This document shows, one piece after another, positions 9,615 through 64,000 of a stretch of 64,000 nucleotides of DNA; position 1 is the stretch's first letter; every line of letters begins with the position of its first letter. Under the pieces are notes generated by a model, which was not told the DNA's origin, ran no database searches, and saw only the letters and a program-made list of their open reading frames with translations. This DNA is from Dongia mobilis. Lineage in GTDB: Bacteria; Pseudomonadota; Alphaproteobacteria; Dongiales; Dongiaceae. The translations under genes were made by a program, and so were the position numbers. Location of the stretch: the NCBI GenBank assembly GCA_945906275.1, contig CAMDRA010000001.1, positions 8,504 through 72,503 on the forward strand, in the 5' to 3' direction.

Positions 9615-10688
9615 TTACTTGCAGGCCACGACTTTGGCGGCGTCGGCGCCCTGGCAGGCTTCGTCCTTCGAGATCCAGCCGGCAGTGATCACCACATCAA
9701 GATTGTCCCTGGTGATGGCGACCGGCTTCAGGAAGGTGGCGTTCATCTCGACGCCCTTGGGGCTCTGCCACTTGATGGTGCCCGGCACGTCGGCGAGCTT
9801 GGCGCCCTTGGCAAGATCGAGGGCGATGGTGGCCGCGGCCTTGCCGAGTTCGCGCGAGTCCTTCCAGACGGAGACCGTCTGGGTTCCGAGTGCGATGCGG
9901 TTTAAGGCCGCCTTGTCGCCATCCTGGCCGGAAACCGGGATGCCGGCGAGACCCTGTGCGGTCAGCGCCGCGACGGCGCCGCCGGCGGTGCCGTCATTGG
10001 ACGCCACGACCGCATCGACCTTGTTGTCGGCCGCGGTCAGGATCTGCTCCATGTTGCGCTGGGCCACGGCTGGATCCCAGTTTTCGGTATATTGCTCGCC
10101 GACCACCTTGATGTCGCCGGCGTCGATCGCGGCTTTGAGCACCTCGAGCTGGCCTTCATGCATGAAGTCCGCATTGGGATCGGCCTGGTTGCCCTTGATG
10201 AAGACGTAATTGCCCTTGGGCTGTGCCGCGAACACGCCCGCTGCCTGCAGGCGGCCCACTTCCTTGTTGTCGAAGGTGAGGTAGTAGGCGGCCGGATCCT
10301 CAATGAGGCGGTCATAGCCCACCACCGGAATGCCGGCATTGGTGGCGGCCGTGATGGCCGGGCCGATCGAGGCCGAATCCTGCGCCAGCACGATGAGCGC
10401 ATTGGCGCCGCCGGCAATCAGGCTTTCGATGTCGGAGAGCTGCTTCGACGGATTGCTCTGCGCGTCGGCCGAAATGTATTTGGCACCGGCGGCGTCGAGC
10501 ACAGCCTTGATCGCCGCTTCATCGGTCTTCCAGCGTTCTTCCTGGAAGTTCGACCAACTGACGCCGACGACCAGATCCTGCGCCTGTGCCGGCTGCAGGC
10601 CGAGCACCGAGGCGCCGGTCAGCAACCCAGCGCCAAGTGCCGCCATGGCAACACGCCGTCCCAATGGACGGGCCAGAAAATTCTTCAT
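9615..10688 (-). CDS. xylF: D-xylose-type periplasmic sugar-binding protein
   Basis: ORF 9615..10787. ATG at 10688 is preceded by GGGAGGAG. Signal peptide [68 protein letters not shown] parallels E. coli XylF. Confidence 0.85.
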
Positions 10689-10902
10689 ATCAACTCCTCC
10701 CAGAGTTAAACCTTGTGCGAGGTCCTGTTTGGGCGCGGATGTCGCCGCGCCGTGAATGCCGGGTTTTCCCCGATCTATTATCTTCATCGAACGAAATTAA
10801 TATCGCCTGCCGAACTTCTCTGCGTCAAGGGAATTGTCTATTTCGCACGTGCGAGAGGTTTTTTCGAACGCTTTAGCCTGATGCCAACACGAAATGCCCT
10901 CG

Positions 10903-10923
10903 ATTTCATTCATCATATGAAAT
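10903..10923. promoter_or_regulatory. candidate operator palindrome ATTTCAT-N7-ATGAAAT in the xylF / ROK-regulator divergent region
   Basis: Perfect 7-bp inverted repeat read directly from the sequence. It overlaps a second dyad GAAAT-N9-ATTTC (10891..10909). ACGAAAT recurs at 10791 and 10889. Confidence 0.35.
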
Positions 10924-10976
10924 AAAAAGAGCACTTGCCGCGCGACGGCCTGCTTGGGGAATGGCACTGATACGTG

Positions 10977-12164
10977 ATGGACAAGATCGACCTCGACCAT
11001 AGCCAGCCGCTCAACCGCCACCGCATCCTGCAGGCGGTACGGCTGCATGGCCCCCTGGCGCGGGTCGATCTCGGTGCAATCGTGGCGCTGAGCCCGGCTA
11101 GCGTTTCCAGCATCACAGGCGATCTGATGCGCGACGGCCTCATCCGGGAGGTACCCGGCAAGGATGCCGGCCGCGGCCGCGGCCGCCCCAAGGTGATGAT
11201 CGAGCTTACCCCCACCGCCGCCTGCATGATCGCGGTGAAGCTCTCGATCAACCGCATCGAAGTGACCCTGGGCGATTTTACCGGCGGCATCGGCCCCTTG
11301 CAGGTGCGGGCGCTGAACACGCTGGAATTGACTGATTCCGGCCTGGTCGAGGCCCTGGCCGAGATGATCGAGGCCTGCATCGCGGCGATCCCCTCGGAGT
11401 TCGGCCCGCTCACCGGCATCGGTCTTGCTGTCCAGGGGCTGGTGCACAAGCACGAGACCCTGGTCTGGTCCCCCGCCCTCACAGTCCGCAACGTGAATAT
11501 CGCCGCCCCTCTGGCGCGGCGCTTTCACCTGCCTGTCATCGCCATGAACGATGCCGATTGCATCGCCGTTTCCATTCGCCACCGGCCGGAATTGCAGGCG
11601 GTCGAGAATCTTGCCGTGGTCATGCTGGGTGCCGGCGTCGGCATGGGCCTCATTCTGGGCGGCAAGCTGCATTCGGCGAGTTCCGGCGCGGGTGCCGAGT
11701 TCGGTCACACCAAATACCAGCTCGACGGGCCGCTCTGCCATTGCGGCCGGCGCGGCTGCATCGAAAGCTTCGTCGGCGATTATGCGCTCTATCGCGATGC
11801 GCGCTCCATGCTCGATCTGCCCAACACCGATGCATTGCATCCCTCCGATGATCAGATGCAGGCGCTGGTCGAACTGGCCCGCAGCGGTCATCCGGTCGCC
11901 ACCAGCCTGTTCCAGCAGGCCGGCCGCGCGCTTGGCTATGGTCTTTCCAACCTCATCGCGCTGATCGGCCCCGACCTCGTGCTGATCACGGGCAGCGGCG
12001 TGCGCGGCTATGCCGAGATGGAGGATGAAATGCGCCGCAGCCTGGAAGAGGCGCTGGTGGACACGCTCCTCGAACAGACCGAAATCCGCGCCTATCCCTG
12101 GGACGAGGATCTCACCATCCGCGGCATCGTCCTCCAGGTGCTGGGCGGCGCCAAGGCTGGCTGA
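10977..12164 (+). CDS. ROK family transcriptional regulator (XylR/NagC-like)
   Basis: N-terminal winged-helix region (NRHRILQAVRLHGPLARVDLGAIVALSPASVSSITGDLMRDGLI) followed by a ROK sugar-kinase-like domain with the CHCGRRGCIE zinc motif. It is divergent from the xyl transporter. Confidence 0.85.
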   Translation: MDKIDLDHSQPLNRHRILQAVRLHGPLARVDLGAIVALSPASVSSITGDLMRDGLIREVPGKDAGRGRGRPKVMIELTPTAACMIAVKLSINRIEVTLGDFTGGIGPLQVRALNTLELTDSGLVEALAEMIEACIAAIPSEFGPLTGIGLAVQGLVHKHETLVWSPALTVRNVNIAAPLARRFHLPVIAMNDADCIAVSIRHRPELQAVENLAVVMLGAGVGMGLILGGKLHSASSGAGAEFGHTKYQLDGPLCHCGRRGCIESFVGDYALYRDARSMLDLPNTDALHPSDDQMQALVELARSGHPVATSLFQQAGRALGYGLSNLIALIGPDLVLITGSGVRGYAEMEDEMRRSLEEALVDTLLEQTEIRAYPWDEDLTIRGIVLQVLGGAKAG

Positions 12165-20026: not shown

Positions 20027-20695
20027 TCAGCGCTTTAAGCGCTCATCAACGATCGCTTTGGCTTTCGCAAAGACCTGATCGATGTCGAGATCCGAGGTGT
20101 CGAGGTGCACGGCATCTTCGGCCGCTTTCATCGGGGCATCGGCGCGCGCTGTGTCGCGGGCGTCGCGGGCCTCGATATCCTCTAAAACCCGGGCGTATAT
20201 AGCCTTCTCGCCGCGCGCTTGCAACTCCTTGAGGCGCCGGTTGGCGCGGGCTGCGGCGCTGGCCGTCACGAAAATCTTCACCTCGGCATCGGGACAGATC
20301 ACCGTGCCGATGTCGCGGCCGTCAAGAACAGACCCAGAACGAGGGCTTCCATCCCCTGCCGGTTGTGGCTCGGCTGCGAATCGACGCTGCCAATCGAAGA
20401 GAGCGGCCCGGACCCCCGGGATGGCTGCCACCTTGGATGAGGCGTCGCCAGCGGCCGCCGAGCGCAGATCGGGATCCTGGAGCAGGTCCGCCGGCAGGTT
20501 TCTGGCGGCTTCCGTGGCGGCGACCGGGTCGCTCGGGTCCTTGCCCAGGCGCAGGACGCTGAGGCCCACCGCCCGGTAGAGCGATCCCGTATCGAGATAG
20601 GCAAGGTTGAAATGGGCGGCCAACCGCTTGGCAAGGGTCCCCTTGCCAGCCGCTGCCGGTCCATCAAGGGCGATGACGAAGGGTTTGCCGGTCAT
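20027..20695 (-). CDS. cmk: cytidylate kinase
   Basis: [51 protein letters not shown] matches Cmk. Confidence 0.92.
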
Positions 20696-59540: not shown

Positions 59541-59627
59541 CTGAACAACCCTAAATCATTGATATGAAGTTTTTTTCAGGGATTTTCATCGCGCAACCTC
59601 AGTTAGAACAAATAATGAACATTTCTC

Positions 59628-59656
59628 TTGCGTACGCAATAGACGTTTGGTAATTT
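59628..59656 (+). promoter_or_regulatory. candidate sigma70-type promoter for the orphan module (TTGCGT-N17-TAATTT)
   Basis: -35 at 59628..59633, a 17-nt spacer, and -10 at 59651..59656. It lies in the AT-rich spacer after pdxY, followed by GGAGGAG and the ATG at 59684. Confidence 0.3.
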
Positions 59657-59683
59657 ACGTACTCCCTTTGGAGGAGTGAAACC

Positions 59684-61840
59684 ATGCGTCCACCCGTGAA
59701 GAAGCCCCTCGACAGCCATCTCACCGACGCGCCCCAGGTTGAATCCCGGCGCGAGGGCCTCGCCGAAAAGCGGAAGCTCGCCCAGCATCTCCACGACCAG
59801 GGCATCAATCCGCTGCGCTGGACCGACGCCCATCCGGCGCCGCAATCCGATCAGGCGACATTTCGAACGACCGGCCGGAAGCCAAAGGACAACCAGTTCG
59901 AGGTCGGCGGCAAGCTCTACGATTGGTCGCCGGCCGTGACCGCAACGCCGCAACAAGCGAAGGCCATTGCTGACGCTTACATCGCTGAACGATCGGGCAA
60001 AGACGGCGGCGCTACGTCGACGCTCAAGATCGAGGATCTGGTCGACATTGGGGAGGTTCCGCTCAAGCATCCGTTCGGCACACCGCACCATGAACGTCCT
60101 GCCAATGATATGAGCCTTGCCGAAGAACGAACCGCCCTCATCCGCCACTATGCGCAAGCCGGCGTCGATCCTGATAAGGCGCATCTCGGCGATCCGGTGG
60201 ATGTAAAGGGACAGGAGCGGATGAAAGCCCAAATCGAGAAAACACCTCCGGGCGACAAGTCGGAGATCAGCGGCCTGCCCCTCTTCTATCAGGGCTTCGA
60301 CGATGGCTGGATCTACCGGCCCAACGCATCGACTCAGGAAAGCGAGGAGGTGCAGAGGATTCGGCTTGCGCAAGCCAGCGCAGAGAACGCCAATGACAAC
60401 GATCCTGAATTGGTCGAGCGCGTTGTGCAGCATTATCTGGATCGCGATTCGCGATCGGGAGCCGCATCACCCCTTCCGTCGGGCGCAGCGACACCGTCTG
60501 ATGATGATCTTGATGCTGTAGCGATGAACCGCCTGCGTAACGCCACGGCGCAGATGCCGCAGTTGATCGCCATCGTCAGAAAAACACAGGCCGGCGAGGA
60601 TCTATCCGACGAGGAAGAAGCGCAGCTGGCCGATATCAAGGAGCGCTTCGCCCAAGGTGGCATCGTGTTCGCGCCGCTCGAAGCCAATCCCGACTATATG
60701 GAGGATGTGCTCAAGGCAATGCGGCTGGAACTCAACTGGGGTCCAGCTTCGGAGATGGCCGTGCCCTTCCATGTCGCTGTCGACAATCTCAATGTCGAGG
60801 TCTCACAAGGCTTACTCGGCGGCACGATCGCCGCCGCGCGCGTCGCAAGGGGAATGCCGCTGGACCGGATGAAAGCCATTGGCCAGCTGGTGCTCGACGC
60901 GCGCCTGAATCTGCCCGCAAAGGCCCTGCTCACCGCTCTCAACACCGATCGCGCCCTAGATGGTCCGCTAGAGATGCCGGATATTTTTGAGGGCTCTGAA
61001 GACGACGCGCAGAATTCTTCTGTATCAGAAGCGCTTCCAACCGACGCAAACATGGTGGGCGCAGAACTCACCGACAGCGCAACTCCCTCAACGGCTTCGG
61101 CAATGCTGTCTTCATCTCAAGTTCTGAACAGGCTCAGCAGCGACGATGTCGCCGATATCAGCCGCATATTTGTCAGCAAGCCTTCGACGTTCAATCGAAC
61201 GCAAGCGGTTAGCATGCCTGCGGACAAGAAAGCAGACTTGCTCACCTCCGGCATGATTGATGAAATCGAGCTCTTTGGTCTGCCAATCTACCTGGCTGAC
61301 CCGCGTGGTAACGAGCAAACCCAAGATCGCATCGACAAACTCAAAACAATGGTACGCAATAAGCTCGTCGAGTGCGGTATGGAAGAGAGTTTTGAATGGG
61401 GTGGGAGGATAGAAGATGAAATTTCCAAGAGAGCGAAAGAGCGCTTCGTTCCTCCAGGAGAAAAAAGGATTCAGGGGGCGAGTCGAGCCGATTTGAGTTT
61501 CAGGATCAGCTGGTTAGGAAAGACCTATATCATCGACATCAACACGGTCGACGTTCTCAAAAACGGCTCAATGACCAAGGCCGAGCGGGTAGCTGCTGAG
61601 GGATTGAGATTAAATCGTCTCATCCGGTTGAGCATAAATGAAACTTTGCCCGAAGACAGCAAACTCGACGAATTTGAAGGGAAAATTGGCACTGTTCCCA
61701 AGGGCAAAGACATGACTGACGAAGAATGGGAAGCTGCAGCGAAGGAATGGGTCGATAGCTTTCTGGACTGTGACGGACCTCTCGAAGCCGATGTCTATCT
61801 TGATCCGGAGTCAAAGCATCCCTGGCCGGGCAAGGAGTAA
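59684..61840 (+). CDS. 718-aa acidic hypothetical protein (no family recognised; no signal peptide or TM segment)
   Basis: Single long ORF with a strong SD (GGAGGAG, 6 nt spacing). Product is D/E/S-rich. GC falls from about 60% to about 45% in the last ~200 codons (hand counts). The stop lies 5 nt before the next ATG. Confidence 0.75.
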   Translation: MRPPVKKPLDSHLTDAPQVESRREGLAEKRKLAQHLHDQGINPLRWTDAHPAPQSDQATFRTTGRKPKDNQFEVGGKLYDWSPAVTATPQQAKAIADAYIAERSGKDGGATSTLKIEDLVDIGEVPLKHPFGTPHHERPANDMSLAEERTALIRHYAQAGVDPDKAHLGDPVDVKGQERMKAQIEKTPPGDKSEISGLPLFYQGFDDGWIYRPNASTQESEEVQRIRLAQASAENANDNDPELVERVVQHYLDRDSRSGAASPLPSGAATPSDDDLDAVAMNRLRNATAQMPQLIAIVRKTQAGEDLSDEEEAQLADIKERFAQGGIVFAPLEANPDYMEDVLKAMRLELNWGPASEMAVPFHVAVDNLNVEVSQGLLGGTIAAARVARGMPLDRMKAIGQLVLDARLNLPAKALLTALNTDRALDGPLEMPDIFEGSEDDAQNSSVSEALPTDANMVGAELTDSATPSTASAMLSSSQVLNRLSSDDVADISRIFVSKPSTFNRTQAVSMPADKKADLLTSGMIDEIELFGLPIYLADPRGNEQTQDRIDKLKTMVRNKLVECGMEESFEWGGRIEDEISKRAKERFVPPGEKRIQGASRADLSFRISWLGKTYIIDINTVDVLKNGSMTKAERVAAEGLRLNRLIRLSINETLPEDSKLDEFEGKIGTVPKGKDMTDEEWEAAAKEWVDSFLDCDGPLEADVYLDPESKHPWPGKE

Positions 61841-61845
61841 CGAGT

Positions 61846-62781
61846 ATGGCTATTTCAGTAGGCGACTTGGAAAATCATGCCTGGCAACGGCAGCGGGTGG
61901 CCGCTGACATTGCATCGGAACCAACCTTCATCGGCGATCACGCATACTTGCAAAGCGCCTATTTGAACTGGGCAGATCTCGATCGGATCGCGAAGGCCAT
62001 ACTTGAGCAGTTTCCGGAAGCCGTTTTCTTCCCTGCCTGTTACAACAATCGAAATCCCAAGTATGCGCCGCCGTCGACAGCCATTGTGCCGATTTACAAG
62101 AATATAGTCGAATGCGCTTTGGATAAGACCCATATGCGTAGGCGACGCGTAACGATTCGATGGCCCTGGGCTGATGAGTTTGATAGCAGGGAGCCAAATA
62201 TTCTGGCGGGCCGCGTTGCGATAGACACCTCTCTTTCGCGCTGGGCGGCACAGCGCAAGATTGGCAGGGGCGTAAATATCGACATCCGCTTTGACGGATA
62301 CTTGCGTTTTCAAGATATTAGGATACGGAATGGCGAGCCGTATTGGGGAGACCGATCGTTGGCCGATGGCCGCCGCATATCTGAACTTGTGCCTGAAAGC
62401 TGGTGCTTTCGAGAAGGCAGCGAGGCGTCTTTGCAATGCGGTTACCATAAGAGCAGTCCGGACGACATCTACTTCGTCTAGGCGGTCAAACGCATCTGGC
62501 GGCAAAACACGACCGATATCTATGCGCTTCATGATGTCCTGACTGGAGAGCTCTGGGACAATGAGGGGCGGAGCCGCGAGCGGCGATATGGCTTCAACGC
62601 GCTGAAGCATGCCGTTGATGGCACGCGCCGCTACATTTCTATCGGCCCCAACAAGGATTACACTCGCTTCAGCGCCATCGGCCCAAGAAAGGCGCATATC
62701 AAGAAGGTTATGGCTACCATCGACAATCCGCTTGACTTCGAAACACTGCAGACACCGGACAACGAGTTGGACTTCGGGTGA
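61846..62781 (+). pseudogene. hypothetical protein, paralogue of the next ORF, interrupted by in-frame TAG at 62479..62481
   Basis: ORF-track entry 61846..62481 (SD AAGGAG). The same frame stays open for 99 further codons to TGA at 62779..62781. The downstream translation (AVKRIWRQNTTDIYALHDVLTGE..) still aligns with the paralogue (TVSSLINRLTVRTACLYDGITKE..). Confidence 0.65.
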
Positions 62782-62895
62782 CCGGACTAGCCACAAACGC
62801 ACGCGCATGAAAGTCTAAGAGATGCCTGAGGGGAAACCAGGCTCTTCTAGAATTCTCTCAGATACCATTCATCCCTCGGATGGAACGGAAGGAAC

Positions 62896-64000
62896 ATGAC
62901 CCGCATAAATCCCTTCGTGCGCATGAGCTGGATAGAAGACTATCCCTACTTGGTGCAACAGGACGTTGCCACCATTGAGGCCGAATTACGGAAGCTGTAT
63001 CCAACGCTGGTCATGTTTCCTAGATCGTATCATTTCCATGAACTGGGAGATGAGCCACGGAAACCGACGTTCATCGACAATATGGTCGAGAATTTCATGC
63101 CGAAAATTGGTCCGGGAGGCGGGTACTCTTCAGGCAGAGCCATCGCGCTCCGCGTGCCTTGGCCCGAGGACATTGCAACAGGGAACCCGCAACGTCTGAT
63201 CGGGCGGCCACATCGCCGGCCGTTCGATGATTCCAAGGACGCGTTCCGCCGCTTCGGGCGCAATGTCTATTTTGACACCCACACAAGCCATAGCGAAATG
63301 CTTCTCTGCGGCATAACGATCCAGCCGCCGGCGGAGTTGTTTGCCTCTTGCTACGACGTACCGGCAAAGGACATGCCCTCGTTCCGCTATCTTGGCGCCA
63401 TAGACGGCTTCAAGGTTGAAATGCCATACGATACGGAGGACTCGGAGGTTGTCACTTTCGTCAAGACAGTTTCGAGTCTCATCAATCGTCTCACCGTAAG
63501 AACCGCATGCCTTTACGATGGTATTACGAAGGAACCGCTGGCTACTTGTTCGCATCCGCGGATAAGCAAGAACTTCAGCCAGCGCTGTGCTGTCGAGCCA
63601 AACCTCTATCGTGGTTTCTTCGGGATTTATCGCGGGCATCCGGCCTTCTTGGGTCCTACACCGGCGCAGCGCTGGAAATGGCGGCGGGAATTTGGATTGC
63701 CTGCAGAGCCAAAGCCGGCCGCGCTCTCCGTCCCCAAGTTTTTGCCTCATGAAATGCTCAAATGGACACGCGAGAATCTCGTATCGGTGCCGAACGAGTT
63801 TCGTGTCGAGGAGAACAAGCTCGCCAATCGCGCCATGTACGACTACGTCGCAGCGCATACGCCCGGCTTCGTGATGCCGGCAGACCCTGTCATCCCAAGA
63901 ATTCTGGCTGAGACTGATATCTGGAGTGAGGTGCAAAGAAGCGCCCGCGAATCACTCCGCCGATACGCGGATATTGGTGAAGCAGCCTATGTAAGCCCCG
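62896..64000 (+). CDS. hypothetical protein, longer paralogue of 61846..62781; 3' end beyond the window
   Basis: Absent from the ORF track because it has no stop. I translated it codon by codon from ATG at 62896 (SD GGAAGGA): 368 sense codons with no stop up to position 64000. It begins MTRINPFVRMSWIEDYPYLVQQDVATIEAELRKLYPTLVMFPRSYHF.. and shares motifs with the preceding ORF. Confidence 0.7.
   Translation, partial: MTRINPFVRMSWIEDYPYLVQQDVATIEAELRKLYPTLVMFPRSYHFHELGDEPRKPTFIDNMVENFMPKIGPGGGYSSGRAIALRVPWPEDIATGNPQRLIGRPHRRPFDDSKDAFRRFGRNVYFDTHTSHSEMLLCGITIQPPAELFASCYDVPAKDMPSFRYLGAIDGFKVEMPYDTEDSEVVTFVKTVSSLINRLTVRTACLYDGITKEPLATCSHPRISKNFSQRCAVEPNLYRGFFGIYRGHPAFLGPTPAQRWKWRREFGLPAEPKPAALSVPKFLPHEMLKWTRENLVSVPNEFRVEENKLANRAMYDYVAAHTPGFVMPADPVIPRILAETDIWSEVQRSARESLRRYADIGEAAYVSP

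Follow-up and report, generated by a model that had tools for sequence, protein, structure and literature searches.

What is the group of genes of low guanine-plus-cytosine (GC) content that follows pdxY in this Dongia genome? We examined this question in a window of 64,000 nucleotides (nt) of DNA (Dongia mobilis assembly GCA_945906275.1, contig CAMDRA010000001.1, positions 8,504 to 72,503; coordinates given without a locus name refer to this window, in which all features of the island lie on the plus strand). The stretch in question begins directly after the last base of pdxY (59540) and carries a large open reading frame (ORF1) and two smaller genes, here termed alpha (ORF2) and beta (ORF3). 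An initial annotation, made from the letters alone, had likened this arrangement to the layout of polymorphic toxin/immunity cassettes. The comparison with related strains supports that view through swapping of the C-terminal part of ORF1, one-to-one matching of each C-terminal type to its partner gene, arrays of orphan partner genes, a low-GC junction inside ORF1, and a relative of the C-terminal domain that sits next to a PT-HINT pretoxin domain. Our preferred reading as a whole, an SOS-controlled and bacteriocin-like polymorphic toxin/immunity system, has in our estimate a probability of about 65%.

ORF1 (59684-61840) encodes a modular toxin candidate of 718 amino acids (aa; identical cluster P0001), and the same protein, residue for residue, has been annotated in Dongia sp. 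(Rhodospirillales), where at least 20 contigs of this species that were assembled independently encode it. Alpha, the candidate cognate immunity gene, starts 5 nt past the ORF1 stop and runs for 211 codons to an in-frame TAG at 62479-62481 (61846-62481). A further 99 in-frame codons followed by a TGA at 62779-62781 (62482-62781) are untranslated unless the TAG is read through. Beta, an orphan immunity candidate, starts at the ATG at 62896 behind a GGAAGGA and is cut by the window edge (62896-64000). The extension of the contig past 64000 proposed in the initial annotation, made with longer contigs of the same lineage, completed beta (393 aa) and added a third paralogue, gamma (302 aa), followed by a convergent GNAT gene and asd. 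The supposed three-gene module is thus an island of four genes, namely, ORF1, the 211-aa alpha, beta, and gamma. The short gap of 5 nt before alpha was given correctly, but the second gap of 114 nt is counted from the true end of the alpha frame (62781) and requires read-through of the TAG at 62479; counted from that codon, the gap is 414 nt. Long minus-strand frames at 61855-62808 and 63130-63936 were rejected as shadow ORFs because all conservation lies in the plus-strand frames.

That ORF2 and ORF3 are divergent paralogues, as initially proposed, is borne out by the BLASTP match between alpha and beta (E 1e-5, search within the window) and by a five-sequence alignment of the alpha/beta/gamma family, which is colinear over ~260 residues and has 26 invariant positions, several of them past the alpha TAG.

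The evidence that carries the preferred reading comes from the pdxY-downstream locus in relatives, which the initial annotation had also suggested comparing. We used a comparison set of 12 related Dongia loci, with a tblastn map of all loci. In 11 non-redundant loci, the toxin gene lies at the same site, between pdxY and the GNAT gene/asd, with variable C-termini and partners. In a 30-protein alignment of ORF1 homologues, ~240 N-terminal residues are almost invariant and are followed by at least five C-terminal types, designated A (the C-terminal domain of the ORF1 in the window), B1, B2, C, and D; the type-D gene sits elsewhere in its genome. The first downstream gene matches the C-terminal type in all 10 informative loci. 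Alpha directly follows type A (4/4 loci), beta follows type B1 (4/4 loci; L002, L003, L012, and L022), and gamma follows type B2 (1/1 locus). Type C is followed by a protein with three to four transmembrane (TM) segments (1/1 locus), and type D by a 71-aa protein with a DsbA gene adjacent (1/1 locus). Among 36 locus pairs, partner identity has a Spearman correlation of 0.82 with C-terminal identity and of 0.13 with N-terminal identity, and the N- and C-terminal identities are themselves uncorrelated (0.03); the pairs are not independent, such that these figures are descriptive. One additional locus (L024) was excluded as evidence for its low coverage (2.9x) and odd gene order.

Farther downstream lie additional genes that belong to the other partner classes. 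Behind type A, the order is truncated alpha, beta, and gamma in the window, alpha, gamma, and the TM protein in L001, alpha, a gamma fragment, and beta in L020, and alpha, beta, and a TM-protein fragment in L021. Behind type B1, it is beta and gamma in L012, beta followed by fragments of alpha, gamma, and the TM protein in L002, and beta and alpha in L022. Beta and gamma are therefore orphans in the lineage of the window. The final 18-19 codons of a type-A toxin gene (84-89% identity) stand ahead of the orphan alpha in both L002 and L022, which we read as the footprint of a displaced cassette of toxin tip and immunity gene. A corresponding type-B1 remnant was looked for ahead of the orphan beta of the window, and none was found.

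Two further observations concern the insertion site and the membrane partner. In L004, the type-C toxin gene is split by a frameshift (10001-11358; 158 + 254 aa), and a duplicated fragment of the pdxY 3' end (11685-11833; 78-86% identity, codons 232-281) lies after the toxin, followed by a 178-aa GNAT-like gene. Such a duplication suggests entry of cassettes by recombination at, or insertion beside, the pdxY 3' end. The TM protein (169-173 aa, three to four TM segments; L001 13897-14406, L011 11266-11787, and fragments in L002 and L021) directly follows the lysozyme-like toxin of Dongia rigui as its partner, and elsewhere it is the last, orphan gene of type-A or B1 islands. It has a weak match to a PHROG family of unknown function (E 5e-4) and none in Pfam, NCBIfam, PADLOC, or PDB sequences.

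Base composition points to the same modular build. The change of sequence character that the initial annotation placed directly after the pdxY stop was found there, with GC dropping from 0.63-0.67 to 0.49-0.57 at the island. At third codon positions (GC3), the value is 0.80-0.87 in 18 flanking host genes and 0.57-0.69 in the island. Within ORF1, GC3 is 0.69 over codons 1-466 and 0.565 over codons 467-718, and the downstream paralogue genes have 0.61-0.64. The lowest GC3 thus begins inside ORF1, at aa ~467, at the junction to the C-terminal module, which includes the low-GC type-A toxin domain (aa 520-718; 61241-61837; GC3 0.565). These are not syntenic core genes with host-like composition: the position is syntenic in the relatives, but the content varies and the composition is not that of the host.

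What the exchangeable domain does can be approached through its relatives. Types B1 and B2 are homologous to type A (hhalign probability 97.7%, E 1.3e-12). In an alignment of 20 type-A-like domains (A5), D603, E634, and K673 (ORF1 numbering) are invariant, G542, G573, E586, N620, D623, and G628 are nearly so, and the recurrent motifs are RGxxxTQ, GG, KERxIP, GSxRxDxxF, (D/E)xN(T/H)xD, T..ER, and PK. Type A is a new predicted alpha/beta domain with an invariant Asp/Glu/Lys set. It is possibly a PD-(D/E)xK-like phosphodiesterase: the predicted order of elements fits the alpha-beta-beta-beta-alpha-beta core of that superfamily, which has an acidic residue at the start of beta2 and (D/E)xK in beta3, with D603 starting a strand and D618-I-N620 in the next. 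This lies in a part of the AlphaFold2 (AF2) model of low confidence (predicted local distance difference test, pLDDT, <60), the ORF1 model being poor at the C-terminus. The Lys of (D/E)xK is replaced by Asn/Gln, and no profile match was obtained. The PoNe effectors are DNases of this superfamily, paired with DUF1911 immunity proteins and marked by the motif Kx3GExnGIDx2YxnYx3ExK (PMC6688995). They set a precedent for a polymorphic nuclease domain that escapes homology searches, is joined to varied delivery domains, and comes with a dedicated immunity family (PMC6688995), but membership of the Dongia domain was rejected, as the motif is absent from alignment A5 and the partners have no DUF1911/DUF1910 match.

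Type-A-like domains extend beyond Dongia in an exhaustive profile search. They occur behind distant versions of the N-terminal domain, as stand-alone proteins of 106-233 aa, and at the C-termini of PG_binding_1 proteins. Three of the latter (P0090, P0094, and P0099) have a PG_binding_1 domain followed by the type-A-like domain, have no signal peptide, and have in common an N-terminal DP(F/M)GRL motif. The domain that follows PT-HINT directly occupies the canonical position of the toxin domain in polymorphic toxins. In P0103, the type-A-like domain (profile E 1.1e-7) lies exactly there, behind PT-HINT (PF07591). Its array, in an unrelated organism (L017 9667-12677), consists of two tandem PT-HINT toxin fragments, the first of which has the type-A-like domain, and a small unannotated gene follows each of them (180 and 143 aa), which makes it an orphan toxin/immunity array; the C-terminal domain of the second fragment is likewise unannotated. 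A distant type-A-like toxin gene in L025 (2-1426) is cut by the contig end, and a 273-aa gene starts 3 nt later. This gene has a weak, statistically unsupported likeness to alpha/beta/gamma near Y..ED.E..AF..V...T...YD..TG, and it was taken as no more than a hint (hhalign probability 3.7%, E 0.011; hidden Markov model score 4.5 bits, equaled or exceeded by 3 of 2000 shuffles).

The remaining types differ in kind. All 12 matches of the type-C profile against the PDB are lytic transglycosylases or g-type lysozymes (MltC, EmtA, and g-lysozymes; best E 0.0063) with the catalytic Glu aligned, and two members reach Pfam SLT below threshold (E 0.002-0.004). Type C with a membrane-protein partner therefore fits the need of a toxin that would act in the periplasm. 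Type D is Cys-rich (about eight Cys) and adjoins a DsbA gene, and therefore points to action outside the cytoplasm. Together with the PT-HINT relative, these variants argue for an action of the system outside the cytoplasm of the producer, directed at other bacteria.

They also bear on the possibility that there is no toxin here at all. ORF1 could be a non-toxic modular protein, e.g., of the cell envelope or derived from a phage, with the paralogues as enzymes or chaperones that co-evolve with its C-terminus. The toxicity of ORF1 is indeed deduced from comparison, the invariant polar residues of the partners are enzyme-like, their predicted fold is new and confident, and nonsense alleles of alpha and beta are tolerated (see below). 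Such a protein would leave unexplained the PT-HINT fusion, the lysozyme-like C-terminus, the orphan arrays, the toxin-tip remnants, and the cassette-like low GC, and tblastn of ORF1 against plasmid and phage collections found no homologue. We regard this explanation as extremely improbable.

How would the toxin gene of the preferred reading be controlled? The control region between pdxY and ORF1 (59541-59683) is an AT-rich spacer of 143 nt with a strong Shine-Dalgarno sequence, GGAGGAG (59670-59676), 7 nt 5' of the ATG, much as initially described (~140 nt). In addition, it has a candidate LexA (SOS) box of the form GAAC-N7-GAAC, GAACAAATAATGAAC (59606-59620), 64 nt before the ATG. This pattern is the reverse complement of the Caulobacter-type GTTC-N7-GTTC, which is the Caulobacter LexA box (PMC9578287 Table 1). 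The pattern is expected 1.39 times per 64 kb by chance, so a single match in the window is uninformative alone, and it is the conservation that counts. The window has one other match (20326-20340), on the opposite strand within a cytidylate-kinase-like reading frame, and it was set aside as chance. Among 11 orthologous spacers, the 5' half is unalignable and the 3' half, with the box, promoter-like hexamers, and Shine-Dalgarno sequence, is conserved. The two GAAC half-sites are identical in 11/11 pdxY-linked loci, and the 7 nt between them vary. In a set of 19 loci, there is essentially one copy of the pattern per ~20 kb, and it sits at the toxin promoter.

The type-D locus (L015 2-2968) adds a different context. 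There, the toxin gene is divergent from an imuA-imuB-dnaE2 cassette (ImuA E 7e-21; error-prone polymerase E 2e-31), which is a classic SOS operon, and a single GAAC-N7-GAAC lies in the 123-nt intergenic region common to both. The candidate box is thus present at all 12 toxin genes examined. In L020, a second copy (11577-11591) is found ~130 nt upstream of the orphan beta, between the gamma fragment and beta, and may be chance or the remnant of a former promoter. The sigma70-like promoter of the initial annotation fails a scan for 9 of 12 consensus positions; the weaker candidate that we put in its place is TTGCGT (-35), N17, TAATTT (-10) at 59628-59656, which has 6/12 consensus positions. It aligns with TTCCAA-N17-TATTAT of relatives, its position is kept in the 11 orthologous spacers, and TA.T.T is invariant. 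Colicins are LexA-repressed (PMC9578287), and the conserved box upstream of the toxin genes points to a colicin-like SOS induction.

Such control would also suit an intracellular module. Caulobacter BapE endonuclease and HigBA are SOS-induced toxins of Alphaproteobacteria under the GTTC-N7-GTTC box, and the Dongia genes resemble them as candidate toxins under a LexA-type box in an alphaproteobacterium. By analogy with BapE or SOS-regulated toxin-antitoxin pairs, the island could be a self-targeting or defense module in which ORF1 acts within its own cell upon DNA damage or phage attack, the paralogues antitoxins or regulators, and the variability that of a defense-island hotspot. This would account for the conserved box, the variable site between core genes, the missing export signal, and the stand-alone versions of the type-A-like domain. 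However, BapE and HigBA are intracellular and non-polymorphic, and have neither orphan immunity arrays nor extracytoplasmic-type variants. The lysozyme-like and Cys-rich variants with membrane or small partners fit only extracytoplasmic action, the PT-HINT context and the orphan arrays with toxin-tip remnants are hallmarks of inter-bacterial toxins, and no PADLOC match was obtained. Moreover, alpha has been lost while the toxin was kept, which would be lethal for a classical toxin-antitoxin pair. An intracellular role is in our view quite improbable.

A further question is how ORF1 would leave its producer. The protein is very acidic (isoelectric point, pI, 4.83; 122 Asp + Glu vs 84 Lys + Arg) and has no TM or signal-like hydrophobic segment, just as the initial annotation had described it. 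Its N-terminal domain (aa 1-250; 59684-60433), with nearly invariant columns in the 30-protein alignment and AF2 pLDDT of 70-90 over aa 21-260, is a candidate trafficking/import module, and a conserved MRPPxKKR forms the extreme N-terminus. The helical middle region (aa ~271-470; 60494-61093) has long helices (pLDDT 80-94 over aa 273-400) and is found in types A and B, but not in the lysozyme-like type C. The helix pattern of the N-terminal domain repeats in the AF2 secondary structure, but an internal repeat was rejected, as the halves are dissimilar (BLASTP E 12). Pfam and NCBIfam searches with the N-terminal 470 aa found no trafficking or marker domain.

With these features, ORF1 could follow the same toxin/immunity logic as the cargo of a machine encoded elsewhere, such as a type VI secretion system (T6SS), a bacteria-killing type IV system (T4SS), a type I system, or a contractile injection system, with the N-terminal domain as a new loading marker. 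MIX/FIX/PAAR-type T6SS effectors likewise combine a conserved N-terminus with toxic C-termini that vary (PMC6688995). The peptidoglycan-hydrolase variant with its membrane partner resembles amidase or muramidase effectors of T6SS/T4SS, and the conserved MRPPxKKR would be expected of a secretion signal. Nevertheless, the flanks of ~10 kb to each side contain no secretion gene in any of the 12 loci, no known marker domain was detected, and SOS control is typical of released bacteriocins and not of T6SS cargo. We therefore consider this route unlikely. Because of the predicted SOS control and the lack of a secretion gene nearby, we favor a colicin/S-pyocin-like mode, with release upon DNA damage and uptake into related cells, over a contact-dependent effector.

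The initial annotation could assign none of the three products to a named family, and the library searches agree. Pfam, NCBIfam, PADLOC, PHROGs, and PDB sequences gave no match for ORF1, alpha, beta, or gamma, either as single sequences or as profiles. Foldseek with the ORF1 model against PDB and BFVD, and with the beta model against PDB, returned nothing better than E 0.02-0.3 with TM-scores of ~0.1, such that the profile searches, structure prediction, and fold comparison once proposed for these products have linked them to no well-characterized enzyme family. The families are very small: a set of 5.8 billion proteins yielded 30 ORF1 clusters and 27 clusters of the paralogues, and one of 1.84 billion proteins yielded 51 ORF1 representatives. 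Literature searches found no description of the ORF1 family and nothing on Dongia secretion systems. Systems of this kind are known, but the libraries and literature searched contain no description of its three protein families, of the conserved LexA-type control in an alphaproteobacterium, or of the large partner family with its new fold.

The preferred reading builds on what was observed: modular ORF1 proteins, partners that co-vary one-to-one with the C-terminal types, orphan arrays that include remnants of toxin genes, a foreign composition, and a conserved box. Several points weigh against it. One is the state of alpha. Position 62479 is T in the window and G in the metagenomic strain L023 (99.4% identical), which gives GAG (Glu) as in every intact orthologue, and the 99-codon extension past the stop is homologous to the C-terminal third of the intact 307-316-aa alpha orthologues and to beta. 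The TAG allele is present in 6/6 assemblies of the lineage (L005-L010) and is real and recent. A nonsense codon in the presumed immunity gene is hence found in every assembly, while ORF1 in this lineage is intact and retains every family-invariant residue. By homology to the beta model, which is confident (pLDDT 84; predicted TM-score, pTM, 0.78), the truncation removes about four core strands. The 211 residues that remain correspond roughly to the first sub-domain of that model and hold the strongest family motifs (RWPW, GR, and RKIGR). It may be that the retained part suffices, that gamma or beta provides cross-protection, that the toxin does its producer no harm, or that the locus is decaying.

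Beta also segregates a nonsense allele in the population, Y18*, seen in 3/6 assemblies: codon 18 (62947-62949; L005 13264-13266) is TAC in the window, L005, L009, and L010 and TAA in L006, L007, and L008. Furthermore, the partners are large (300-390 aa) and have common invariant charged residues (R, W, D, E, and K), which makes them more enzyme-like than typical immunity proteins. With a pI of 4.9 for the toxin domain and of 9.1 for beta, the charges (acidic toxin domain, basic beta) are the opposite of those in classic nuclease colicin/immunity pairs. The box is an eight-base pattern to which LexA binding is predicted, the PD-(D/E)xK assignment comes from motif and secondary-structure order in a low-confidence model, and toxicity, neutralization, release, and uptake likewise enter as predictions. 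Neither a trafficking, secretion, nor lysis component was recognizable at the locus, which leaves the export and import steps conjectural. Two side observations concern the start of beta. Gene callers give a 326-aa product for the TAA allele, and in L023 an AAG replaces the beta ATG at ~941 (window 62897), which is 10 bases from the contig end and may be an assembly artifact.

Taken with these reservations, the preferred reading would have the following form. A chromosomal polymorphic toxin-immunity island of Dongia sp. would be inserted between pdxY and the GNAT gene/asd. ORF1 would be a modular toxin in which a lineage-specific N-terminal domain and the helical middle region presumably serve trafficking or import and are joined through a linker to an exchangeable C-terminal killing domain, type A in the window. 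Alpha would be the cognate immunity gene for type A, and beta and gamma would be orphan immunity genes, either retained from type B1 and B2 toxins of related strains or gained as protection against them. New cassettes of killing domain and immunity gene would recombine in where the N-terminal part meets the C-terminal domain and shift older immunity genes downstream. LexA probably represses the system through the GAAC-N7-GAAC box, and DNA damage would induce it, as for colicins. The product would most likely be released as a colicin/S-pyocin-like bacteriocin that kills related strains without matching immunity.

Protein bacteriocins such as the colicin E-group with Im, pyocin S2, pesticin with Pim, and colicin M with Cmi have nuclease, pore-forming, or peptidoglycan targets. 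The Dongia system is like colicins and S-type pyocins in its soluble protein of 500-800 aa with no signal peptide, conserved N-terminal and central parts, and a swappable killing domain; in its matching candidate immunity gene directly downstream and its orphan candidate immunity genes; in its muramidase-type variant with a membrane-anchored candidate immunity protein; and in its compositionally foreign cassette with no secretion system at the locus. The conserved LexA-type box would add a likeness to the LexA-repressed colicins (PMC9578287). Unlike colicins and pyocins, no Dongia domain has a sequence or fold match to them in Pfam, NCBIfam, or the PDB, and the immunity candidates are proteins of 300-390 aa with a new fold, compared with Im proteins of ~85 aa. 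We identified no lysis gene in the island; the acidic toxin domain and the alphaproteobacterial host are further differences, and release and receptor uptake are conjectural.

Polymorphic toxin systems in the sense reportedly introduced by Zhang, Aravind and colleagues in 2012 are said to include CDI/CdiA-CT (contact-dependent inhibition), Rhs/YD, and PT-HINT- and PT-TG-linked toxins. The Dongia system has in common with them the C-terminal polymorphism on a constant N-terminus, the cognate immunity gene downstream, the displaced orphans that keep an old toxin tip, and the type-A-like domain right after PT-HINT in P0103. It differs in that no catalogued trafficking (TPS/FHA, Rhs, PAAR, LXG, MAFB, and others), toxin, or immunity family was detected, and SOS control is not a usual feature of such systems.

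Our understanding of polymorphic toxins and colicin-like bacteriocins is good for Gammaproteobacteria and Firmicutes and much poorer for free-living soil and groundwater Alphaproteobacteria. As a bolder and rather doubtful claim, these may be the first described LexA-controlled, secretion-system-independent protein bacteriocins in Rhodospirillales/Alphaproteobacteria, built from three undescribed families: an import/trafficking domain, a toxin superfamily that other phyla also carry behind PT-HINT and PG-binding modules, and an immunity family of 300-390 aa with a new fold. Given its invariant charged residues, this immunity family may protect enzymatically, by reversing the product of the toxin rather than by simple binding. 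If the preferred reading is true, it would provide a new toxin-domain superfamily that reaches beyond Dongia, a new N-terminal module that encodes export or uptake, and a large immunity family with a confidently predicted new fold and matched specificities (A-alpha, B1-beta, and B2-gamma) for studies of specificity evolution. The natural nonsense alleles of alpha and beta offer a direct test of whether self-protection needs these genes. Above the level of the single locus, the system would link the alphaproteobacterial SOS regulon to warfare between strains.

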